From an uncultured Nitrososphaerales archaeon (GTDB lineage: Archaea > Thermoproteota > Nitrososphaeria > Nitrososphaerales > Nitrososphaeraceae), in the NCBI GenBank assembly GCA_963695855.1, contig CAVOHZ010000010.1, forward strand, positions 1,536,001 to 1,600,000: a DNA stretch of 64,000 nucleotides. The letters are read 5' to 3'. The notes below the pieces were generated by a model that had not been told where the DNA came from, searched no databases, and saw only the letters and a program-made list of their open reading frames with translations. A program made the position numbers and the translations under genes. How positions within the stretch are numbered: the stretch's first letter is position 1; each line of letters begins with the position of its first letter. Positions 62,544-64,000 of the stretch are shown in pieces.

Positions 62544-62718
62544 TTTATGATCTTTTTTTATTACTCCTACTGCTTTGAATAGGCCTCATTTATAGTAATT
62601 CTCACTATCAACTAAATAAAATATAAAGATTTGGGATATATTCTATACGGCTCTGTAGGTGAAATGTTCGACAGAGCTAACATTCAAGAAGAAAGCCACT
62701 ACCAATACTCTTGCAAAT

Positions 62719-63747
62719 ATGTATGCGGCATTAGATTTAGGACAGAAAAACATTCAGGCAGTATTGAAAAATAAAGATGGTAAGATTATAAAGGAAAATA
62801 AAATACAGCGTAATACCAAAACAATACTAGAATTTCTTGATAATAGTAACAAGAATCATAATAATATTGATATTGTAATGGAGTCTGGTTACAACTATCA
62901 ATATCTATATGATCTTTTACAAGATGAAGGTTATAATGTAAAAGTAGCACATCCACTAATGGTCAAGGCAATAGCATATGCTAAAGTCAAGACAGATAAA
63001 GTAGATGCTAGAATATTAGCAGATCTACTAAGAATGGATATGATACCAGAATGTTATATACCTAATAAAGATATAAGAAATTTACGAGATCTAGTTAGAC
63101 GCAGATACTATTTTGTCAGTATTCGAACAATGTTCAAAAACAAAGCACATGTTGAGATGAGTAAAAGATGGTTAGATGCTAATGTGACTAATAATATAAC
63201 AACAACAATGATTAAAAATGATCCATTTTCTAAAAAAGGAAAATGTCATTTACGTTCACTGGGAATACATGCATTAGATGATTGCCTTGATACCATAGAT
63301 TTTCTAGATAGAAAAATAAAAGAGTTGGATACAGAAATAAAGAAATTGGCAATAGAAGATAAATACTCTAAACATCTTATGACAATTCCAGGTATATCTT
63401 ACTATGCAGCTCTTCTAATATCAAGCGAGATAGCAGATATTAACAGGTTTCCAGACTATGAACATCTGTGTTCTTATGCTAGATTAGTACCTGGTACATA
63501 TCAATCTGGAAATACATCATTCTCAAAAACAGACAAAAAACAAGGGAGCAAAATGCTAAACTGGATTATGGTACAGTGTACTCATACACATGTACGTTAT
63601 TGCCAATCATCGATAACAGTACATTACAACAAGATAAAGAATAGAAAGAGAAATAACAAAATTGCTATAATTGCAGCAGCAAGAAAATTAATGCGTGTGA
63701 TATATGTTATGCTAAAGGAAGATCGTCCCTTTAGACTGGATGAATAA
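62719..63747 (+). CDS. IS110-family transposase/recombinase (start moved to the ATG of MYAALDLG)
   Basis: RuvC-like DEDD residues (ALDLG, VMESG, KTDKVDA), TIPGI, catalytic serine in YQSG, AARKL. Confidence 0.95.
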   Translation: MYAALDLGQKNIQAVLKNKDGKIIKENKIQRNTKTILEFLDNSNKNHNNIDIVMESGYNYQYLYDLLQDEGYNVKVAHPLMVKAIAYAKVKTDKVDARILADLLRMDMIPECYIPNKDIRNLRDLVRRRYYFVSIRTMFKNKAHVEMSKRWLDANVTNNITTTMIKNDPFSKKGKCHLRSLGIHALDDCLDTIDFLDRKIKELDTEIKKLAIEDKYSKHLMTIPGISYYAALLISSEIADINRFPDYEHLCSYARLVPGTYQSGNTSFSKTDKKQGSKMLNWIMVQCTHTHVRYCQSSITVHYNKIKNRKRNNKIAIIAAARKLMRVIYVMLKEDRPFRLDE

Positions 63748-63759
63748 TAATATAGTATA

Positions 63760-63949
63760 GGACCTCTTGGTTTCTTGCATCGTCATATTGTTATTATTAT
63801 ATGATAAGTATGATGGATGCCATCTGTAGGTTAGGTCTGGCTACTACTAGCGCAAAGCCACGGTGCACTATTGGTGCGTATGGGAGAATGCTATTATTCA
63901 TCAGTTAATCATATTAGGAACGAGTATTATATGAACATGGGAGAAACCA
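63760..63949 (+). ncRNA. putative bridge/seek RNA of the IS110 element
   Basis: Stem GACCT/AGGTC enclosing an 11x12 internal loop and a GCATC...GATGC hairpin; further hairpins TGGCT/AGCCA, GCACT/GGTGC, TTCAT/ATGAA. Confidence 0.7.
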
Positions 63950-64000
63950 TCATAGCTAGCATCATTCTACCATTAATTATTGAATAAACAACAATCAAAA

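Follow-up and report, generated by a model that had tools for sequence, protein, structure and literature searches.

The window analysed here is a 64,000-nt stretch of the genome of an uncultured Nitrososphaerales archaeon (G000:C10:1536001-1600000, where G000 is the source genome and C10 its contig). Positions 62659-63943 of this window very probably constitute an insertion sequence (IS) of the IS1111 type within the IS110 family, which would carry a guide RNA of the bridge RNA/seekRNA kind in its right end; the first internal loop of this RNA (loop 1) is predicted to bind the target site, and the second (loop 2) probably binds the donor. RNA guidance of IS110 and IS1111 elements is already established; what is new is a cleanly resolved archaeal member, one feature of which may itself be new. 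The element and its landmarks are as follows.

62659..63943, + strand: IS110-family (IS1111-like) element, 1285 bp including one core copy (62657-63941 is equally valid), present in three identical copies
62657-58, + strand: left copy of the core AG, the last 2 bp of the host tip
63942..63943, + strand: right copy of the core AG, located by comparison of occupied and solo host copies
62664..62669, + strand: left subterminal inverted repeat ATGTTC, 5 nt from the core (GAACAT at 63933-38 is its reverse complement)
63933..63938, + strand: right subterminal inverted repeat GAACAT, 3 nt (GGG) from the core
62719..63747, + strand: transposase gene, 342 amino acids from the ATG at 62719, within an open frame spanning 62659-63747; presumed catalytic residues D6, E55, D93, D96 and S263

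The boundaries were obtained from copy alignments. Three full copies of the element exist in the genome, reading GGCTCTGT-AG-GTGAAATG...ACATGGG-AG-AAACCATCATAGC, and three solo copies of the surrounding IS5-type element (the host IS) lack the insert and read GGC(T/C)CTGT-AG-AAACCATCATAGCTAGC contiguously (in shorter form, GGC(T/C)CTGT-AG-AAACCATCATAGC). AG is found at both junctions in 3/3 occupied copies and once in 3/3 empty sites, and the element has no terminal inverted repeats, as expected of an IS110 member. Taken together, the uninterrupted and the occupied copies define an inserted element of 1285 bp with AG shared at its junctions. The true empty site is GGCTCTGT-AG-AAACCATCATAGC (also written GGCTCTGT-AG-AAACCATC), that is, the left terminal inverted repeat of an IS5-family element, and the insertion point lies 10 bp inside this repeat. 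The gene is preceded by 60 nt (62659-62718) and followed by a 194-nt non-coding region (63748-63941), an arrangement that fits the IS1111 type.

Identity among the three copies is 100 % only in 62649-63960 and drops to 85-88 % from there to window-equivalent 64875. While the inserts are identical at 1285/1285 positions in all three pairs, the host parts agree at 829/938, 801/938 and 805/941 positions (85-88 %). Identical inserts in diverged host copies mean that the three insertions are recent and independent, and that they occurred in host copies that had already diverged. The element is apparently active, since the complete identity of its copies argues for recent activity.

A census of the whole genome for the 13-mer TCTGT-AG-AAACCA, in which occupied sites were reconstituted from their flanks and sites with no or one mismatch were considered, revealed a pronounced selectivity. 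All five perfect sites are left terminal repeats of the host IS5-type family and three of them are occupied, against 0/18 of the one-mismatch sites. Among the latter are right-hand repeats of the host family, three with TGTGT... and three with ...AATCCA (six in all), as well as a single left repeat with CCTGT.... For three insertions to land exclusively in the five perfect sites out of 23, the probability is C(5,3)/C(23,3) = 10/1771, or ~0.006 (calculated by hand). A single genome with five perfect and 18 one-mismatch sites, of which only perfect ones are occupied, thus amounts to a natural specificity experiment. The same preference is seen elsewhere: a metagenomic relative with 94 % DNA identity (L060) occupies the same repeat with the same junctions and other flanks, and a ~95 % relative in a contig from an RNA library begins at the same host tip next to a different flank. 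A further relative, L050, has a different left flank (GGCTTTTTAG) and breaks off before the non-coding region.

Remnants of the element were also encountered. One fragment of the right end, at G000:C3:39402-39742 (the C3 fragment), is 93.5 % identical from window-equivalent 63615 onwards, retains both loops and closes with AG-AAACCTTCCTAC, which is the target in diverged form. A possible second right-end remnant at G000:C4:102972 is a 2-mismatch match only. Fragments of a degraded relative with 79-81 % DNA identity are located at G000:C2:54946-55285 and C2:55563-56111, ~280 bp from amoA. The source genome is repeat-dense overall, and its IS110-family paralogues P2 (at least 5 copies, 86-99 %) and P4/P7 (fragments) also adjoin multi-copy repeats.

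The non-coding region downstream of the transposase gene contains the first of the two putative guide modules.

63760..63838, + strand: loop-1 module; outer stem 63760-65/63833-38, 5' side 63766-76, inner stem from 63777-81/63816-20, 3' side 63821-32
63768..63775, + strand: 5' guide TGGTTTCT, complementary to the top strand of core plus right target (AG-AAACCA)
63823..63831, + strand: 3' guide TCTGT-AG-GT, in which TCTGTAG (63823-29) equals left target plus core and would pair with the bottom strand, followed by GT

The two sides of loop 1, CTTGGTTTCTT (63766-76) and CATCTGTAGGTT (63821-32), match both halves of the true target, core included, and loop 1 can for this reason be read as the target-binding loop, which would contact both strands around the core. 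Viewed from the strand opposite to the RNA, the target reads TGGTTT-CT-ACAGA, with CT as the core, the 5' side of the loop as the left guide and the 3' side as the right guide. The top-strand match precedes (is 5' of) the bottom-strand match, and this is the order described for IS1111-type seekRNAs, which likewise come from the region downstream of the gene (PMC11187229 and PMC11208160). Both matches including the core (same-sense of at least 7 nt and complementary of at least 8 nt) were reached together in 2/2000 mononucleotide shuffles of the 194-nt region, and singly in 164/2000 and 38/2000. Both sets of stems are present in an unconstrained ViennaRNA fold of 63752-63905. In the 3' side the core is followed by GT, the dinucleotide with which the left end of the element begins; as a handshake-type dinucleotide, it would not pair until strand exchange has brought in the element end.

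These results revise the original prediction, made from the sequence without database searches, that this loop binds the donor. Its raw observations are accurate: the stems GACCT 63761-65/AGGTC 63833-37 and GCATC 63777-81/GATGC 63816-20 are there, as are AGAAACCA at 63942-49, TCTGTAGGT at 62652-60, TC at 62652-53 and 63950-51, and CCATCTGTAGGT at 63820-31. An internal loop in the right end matching both strands around a 2-nt core was also rightly recognised, but it matches the target and not the donor, because AGAAACCA and TCTGTAG are the halves of the insertion site rather than element ends. That GT is also the start of the left end explains the 9-nt identity to 62652-60 that had been noticed, and the extra CCA behind the 12-nt match CCATCTGTAGGT, which serves no purpose once the model is corrected, is best taken as accidental. 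As a caution for similar analyses, a loop matching both insertion junctions reports the target and not the donor, unless the empty site has been checked. The 8-mer TATGATGG at window 63809-63816, within the 3' strand of the inner stem region of loop 1, is the complement of CCATCATA (right-target positions 5-12), and its match runs into the end of the main guide match; this may represent a longer contact with the target or mere chance, a single 8-mer not being significant alone. A blind test of 8-mers common to the upstream and downstream regions of 10 loci was too noisy in such AT-rich DNA to be used by itself.

We compared the element with three other archaeal IS110-family lineages whose ends could be defined empirically.

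P1 (37 % to the focal element; same genome): core TG; subterminal repeats ATGTAAAAGTC / GACTTTTACAT; long non-coding region upstream
R1 (42 % to the focal element; genome G010, same genus): core TA; subterminal repeats ATGTGAA / TTCACAT; long non-coding region downstream
N1 (25 % to the focal element; a Nitrosopumilaceae chromosome, four copies): core TG; subterminal repeats of 14 bp; long non-coding region upstream

P1 occupies both terminal repeats of a different ~1-kb IS, the uninterrupted site GCCTTGT-TG-CACAACT being present in about 7-10 copies, and R1 occupies one fixed position (GTTAGC-TA-TGGTCAG) of a repeat with about 40 uninterrupted copies in G010. The spacing between subterminal repeat and core is 5 nt on the left and 3 nt on the right in 4/4 elements (the repeats of the relatives measure 7, 11 and 14 bp), and these shared offsets lend independent support to the AG core of the focal element. 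The same two-loop register, with different guides, recurs in P1, R1 and N1. Loop 1 agrees with the left target at 5/5 positions in the focal element and P1, at 4/5 in R1 and at 2-4/5 in N1, and its 5' side complements the right target of the same element over 8 nt in both the focal element and R1 and over 7 nt in P1, with 4-5/10 in-register identities in N1. The dinucleotide behind the loop-1 core equals the first two bases of the element in 4/4 cases. Folds in which only the guide bases were held open produce two modules in the focal element, R1 and P1, and the unconstrained folds of the focal element and P1 already hold these stems. Two further candidates for this comparison were dropped: paralogue P2 (359 amino acids) has heterogeneous flanks and no clean empty site, and L025 (G056) is a single copy with a repeat as its right flank and an unrelated left flank, so that its ends could not be placed, and neither could those of L023.

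The second module follows directly downstream, and one of its sides has a counterpart at the opposite end of the element.

63848..63893, + strand: loop-2 module; outer stem 63848-52/63889-93, 5' side with AAAGCCAC (63854-61), hairpin 63864-78, 3' side with ATGGG-AG-AA (63880-88)
62692..62699, + strand: left-end site AAAGCCAC, left-end positions 34-41, a same-sense copy of the loop-2 5' side

The 3' side of loop 2, GTATGGGAGAAT, contains ATGGG of the right end at positions 3-7, the AG core at positions 8-9 and AA at positions 10-11, in the same core register as loop 1; the AA corresponds to the first two bases of the right target. Loop 2 agrees with the right end at 5/5 positions in all four elements, its core being at positions 8-9 of the 3' side in 4/4. 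In IS621, handshake dinucleotides pair with the other substrate only after strand exchange (PMC13626964), and those of the focal element (GT in loop 1, AA in loop 2) follow this pattern, matching the other substrate at 4/4 bases and their own at 0/4. The homologous loop-2 5' sides of P1 and N1 differ by one base, TGTAT versus TGTGT, in step with left ends reading AATACA and AACACA, a compensatory change. Based on these matches, loop 2 is the probable donor-binding loop; we call it a candidate donor loop only, given the misfit of its 5' side, the frequency of its match in shuffled sequences and the behaviour of ISEc11, which needed no more than a short seekRNA with target matches (PMC11187229).

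The 5' side of loop 2 behaves peculiarly. In the focal element, AAAGCCAC at 63854-61 recurs in the same sense at 62692-99 (24/5000 shuffles reach 8 nt), and in R1 the loop-2 5' side, AGACGGTAA, has a 9-nt same-sense match in the left end from position 34 (12/5000 shuffles reach that length). In these two elements, both with the non-coding region downstream, the copied sequences differ and the position is the same, in each case upstream of the transposase start codon. No complementary partner for the loop-2 5' side was detected within either element at up to one mismatch. Among the R1 copies in G010 the left-end site is invariant (5/5), and the loop-2 5' side of one copy, L062, has an A-to-G substitution with no counterpart in its left end; this offers no support for strict coupling and, if L062 is functional, slight evidence against it. 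It is conceivable, though we consider it doubtful, that in this archaeal IS1111-like clade the second loop recognises the donor in a way that falls outside the IS621 model, with its 5' side serving as a third guide-like contact at left-end position 34. If so, pairing of this side with the bottom strand might hold the left end within the synaptic complex, or else the ribonucleoprotein could sit on the promoter region of the transposase and thereby regulate its own expression.

Several observations weigh against the interpretation of the element as a whole or of loop 2 in particular. The focal subterminal repeat is perfect but only 6 bp long, below the 7-17 bp given for IS1111 elements (PMC11208160). 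A single-sequence fold of 201 nt (63745-63945) is no better than those of shuffled sequences (z = -0.07; 87/200 shuffles as good or better), and Rfam returned no family, its three matches (rli28, snR13 and mir-3118) having E-values of 6.7-8.9, far under the gathering scores, with no bridge RNA or seekRNA family among them. Contigs from an RNA library (run X15) cover the element and its right junction, and assembled contigs cannot show transcription or RNA ends; likewise, no joint between right and left end is reported in the assembled contigs of four out of 20 public runs (X1, X3, X5 and X15), contigs being uninformative on circles. Covariation within the lineage is lacking, as the guides of L060 (94 %) and of the C3 fragment (93 %) are identical to the focal ones, and the stems show a single change (C63820 to T, in the C3 fragment), which retains a G-U pair. 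In N1, 3/4 natural left flanks match loop 1 poorly (2/5). As for loop 2, its 5' side is complementary to core plus left end over no more than 3 nt (focal) or 2 nt (R1), 118/2000 shuffles reproduce its 7-nt match taken singly, the dinucleotide behind its core equals the right target in one of the four elements (the focal one), and the sufficiency of a short seekRNA for ISEc11 implies that a donor loop may not be needed in the IS1111 type.

How do other explanations fare against this background? The boundaries originally proposed, a span of 62652-63951 with a TC core, a circle joined as AGAAACCA-TC-TGTAGGT and an empty site TTCTATACGGC-TC-ATAGCTAGCATC, draw on literal matches that do exist, including the 12-nt identity to the hypothetical joint at 63820-31, but their chance of being correct is now close to nil. 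TCTGT-AG-AAACCATCATAGC is contiguous in the three uninterrupted host copies, so TCTGT and AAACCA belong to the flanks, the core is AG and the ends are 62659-63943; the proposed empty site, including its ATAGC part, does not exist, since ATTCTATAC is the 9-bp target-site duplication of the host and GGC is the host tip. Homology among copies was expected to stop at the two TC dinucleotides, but it continues past 63951 to window-equivalent 64875 at 85-88 %, and the subterminal offsets of 5 and 3 nt, which recur in three relatives, fit AG. We regard it as very improbable that the IS5 element and its IS110 insert move as one composite by means of the IS5 transposase, following a single insertion, in which case the three copies would say nothing about IS110 target choice: the shared position and orientation of the inserts in all three host copies, and the separate 8-9-bp duplication of each, would fit such spread, but it would mean joint divergence, and the inserts are identical at 1285/1285 positions in hosts of 85-88 % identity; moreover, the 94 % metagenomic relative and the ~95 % RNA-library contig lie in the same repeat with other flanks.

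A third possibility, that the protein alone picks the site and the matches between loop and flank are by-products (for instance, sequence acquired from the site) with no guide RNA acting, has in its favour that short matches are common in an AT-rich non-coding region; both-strand matches containing the core nevertheless appeared in only 2/2000 shuffles, four diverged archaeal elements with four different target sites each match their own site in the same loop register, and the family is experimentally RNA-guided (PMC11208160, PMC11187229), which makes this possibility quite improbable. More serious, if still unlikely, is the notion that loop 2 serves a structural or protein-binding function, or mimics left-end positions 34-41 for regulation, with the protein reading the ends through the subterminal repeats. 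The lack of complementarity between its 5' side and the left end in the focal element and R1, its identity to left-end positions 34-41/42 in both and the short seekRNA that suffices for ISEc11 (PMC11187229) would all be accommodated, but not so easily the agreement of the 3' side with right end plus core (5/5, core at positions 8-9) in 4/4 elements, nor the variation of the P1 and N1 5' sides with their left ends. We retain the reading of an IS1111-type element with a target-binding loop 1 and a candidate donor loop 2.

On this reading, the element would be excised as a circle joined ...ACATGGG-AG-GTGAAATG... (in longer form ...TATATGAACATGGG-AG-GTGAAATGTTCG...), and the RNA would be transcribed and bound by the transposase. 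A TATA-like stretch, TATTATATGA, lies at window 63926-63935, 8-17 nt before the right core, and points outwards: in the linear copy it faces the IS5 transposase gene of the host, and in a circle it would face the left end of the element and its own transposase gene. Such an arrangement would resemble the junction promoters described for bacterial IS1111 and IS110 elements.

The family assignment is supported by the protein. The transposase matches Pfam DEDD_Tnp_IS110 (4.9e-24; 85.3 bits, cut-off 29) and Transposase_20 (2.8e-18; 66.5 bits, cut-off 21.3), as well as the NCBIfam model NF033542, 'IS110 family RNA-guided transposase' (218.3 bits, cut-off 140), over residues 2-336 of 342. It aligns to IS621 and ISCro4 across the catalytic motifs LDLG, MES, KTDKVDA and YQSGN, and D6, E55, D93, D96 and S263 correspond to what we take to be the catalytic residues of IS621; the earlier description of an intact IS1111-type member with its DEDD and Ser residues in place is borne out. 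The motif GL-P----S(t)G of IS1111 transposases, which are 330-350 amino acids long (PMC11187229), appears as RLVPGTYQSG, with L, P and SG present and R in place of G. Attribution to an ammonia-oxidising archaeon also holds: the genome encodes amoA (Pfam Archaeal_AmoA, 390.9 bits), and the nearest relatives are found in metagenome-assembled genomes of Nitrososphaeraceae/Nitrososphaerales. Scans for relatives yielded 10 among 39 pattern matches in genome contigs and 1 among 67 in the metagenome.

Among characterised systems, the closest resemblance is to ISEc11, ISPa11 and ISKpn4 (Siddiquee et al. 2024, PMC11187229), with which the focal element shares a DEDD transposase of ~340 amino acids, a long downstream non-coding region, subterminal inverted repeats with short terminal extensions, strict specificity for a repeated sequence, and a top-strand guide match located 5' of the bottom-strand match, the two overlapping at the insertion point. 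Unlike them, it has an archaeal host, 6-bp subterminal repeats, an IS5-family terminal repeat as its target and a second loop with a readable right-end match, whose 5' side copies left-end positions 34-41. With IS621 (Durrant et al. 2024, PMC11208160) it has in common two internal loops, target followed by donor, a 2-nt core in each guide, a core that reads CT on the opposite strand, and dinucleotides beside the core that match at 4/4 bases after exchange and 0/4 before (PMC13626964). It differs from IS621 in having its RNA in the right rather than the left end, in a strand order reversed relative to the RNA and in a donor-loop 5' side that does not pair with the donor junction. The protein is distant from the solved bacterial members (E about 4e-13 to IS621 and ISCro4), a comparison that contained no IS1111-type member. 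A bacterial IS110/IS1111-family element reportedly targets a single fixed position within the terminal inverted repeat of a Tn3-family element; the focal element similarly uses a fixed position in the terminal inverted repeat of another element, but is archaeal and has an IS5-family host.

IS110-family transposases were noted at the annotation level in fosmids of soil ammonia oxidisers in 2012 (PMC3379541), and our literature search found nothing on guides or targets of these archaeal elements, although the supplementary tables of PMC11208160 and PMC11187229, which lay outside the search, may list some. The focal element thus offers a mesophilic archaeal system in which target, donor ends, core and guides can be read directly, and the recent activity suggested by three identical copies makes its transposase, together with an RNA covering 63752-63905, a reasonable candidate for recombination assays. 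Targeting of one IS by another may be common in these archaea, P1 in the same genome and R1 in the same genus being likewise inserted in other repeats. As each insertion splits an end of the host IS, such elements may restrain, or ride on, expansions of IS5-type elements; an IS5 expansion is known in a Nitrosocosmicus genome (PMC6563490).

The host IS itself extends beyond the window.

62649..62658, + strand: outer 10 bp of the host left terminal inverted repeat, GGCTCTGTAG, separated from the rest by the insertion (solo copies read GGCTCTGTAGAAACCATCA unbroken); inverted counterpart at equivalent 64857-64875
63944..64000, + strand: remainder of the host IS, running to window-equivalent 64875 beyond the window; its transposase open reading frame begins near 63975
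62640..62648, no strand: left copy of the 9-bp host target-site duplication, ATTCTATAC; right copy at equivalent 64876-64884, past the window

The host IS is ~942 bp long; one of its terminal inverted repeats reads GGCTCTGTAGAAACCATCA, the opposite one the reverse complement of GGCTGTGTAGAAACCATCA. Its transposase matches Pfam DDE_Tnp_1 (3.3e-11) and the NCBIfam IS5-family model NF033579 (154.4 bits, cut-off 140), and each of the six host copies examined (6/6) is flanked by its own 8-9-bp duplication. With a DDE transposase, inverted ends and flanking duplications, the host element is a member of the IS5 family. In a metagenomic contig from run X5, window 62639 is directly followed by 64876, 9 bases being ambiguous; this contig corresponds to the site before the whole host IS arrived.

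Two further observations concern the relatives. In the R1 copy L063 (G010:C300), a deletion fuses the inner hairpins of loop 1 and loop 2, both of which read GAGGG-AAGCCTC, and removes the loop-1 3' side and the loop-2 5' side, in what looks like recombination between the repeated hairpins. Outside the window, at G000:C10:287360-291298, one copy of the ~1-kb IS holds P1 in both of its terminal inverted repeats, in inverted orientation; these two P1 copies are 99.8 % identical over 1482 bp and enclose about 1 kb of host IS.

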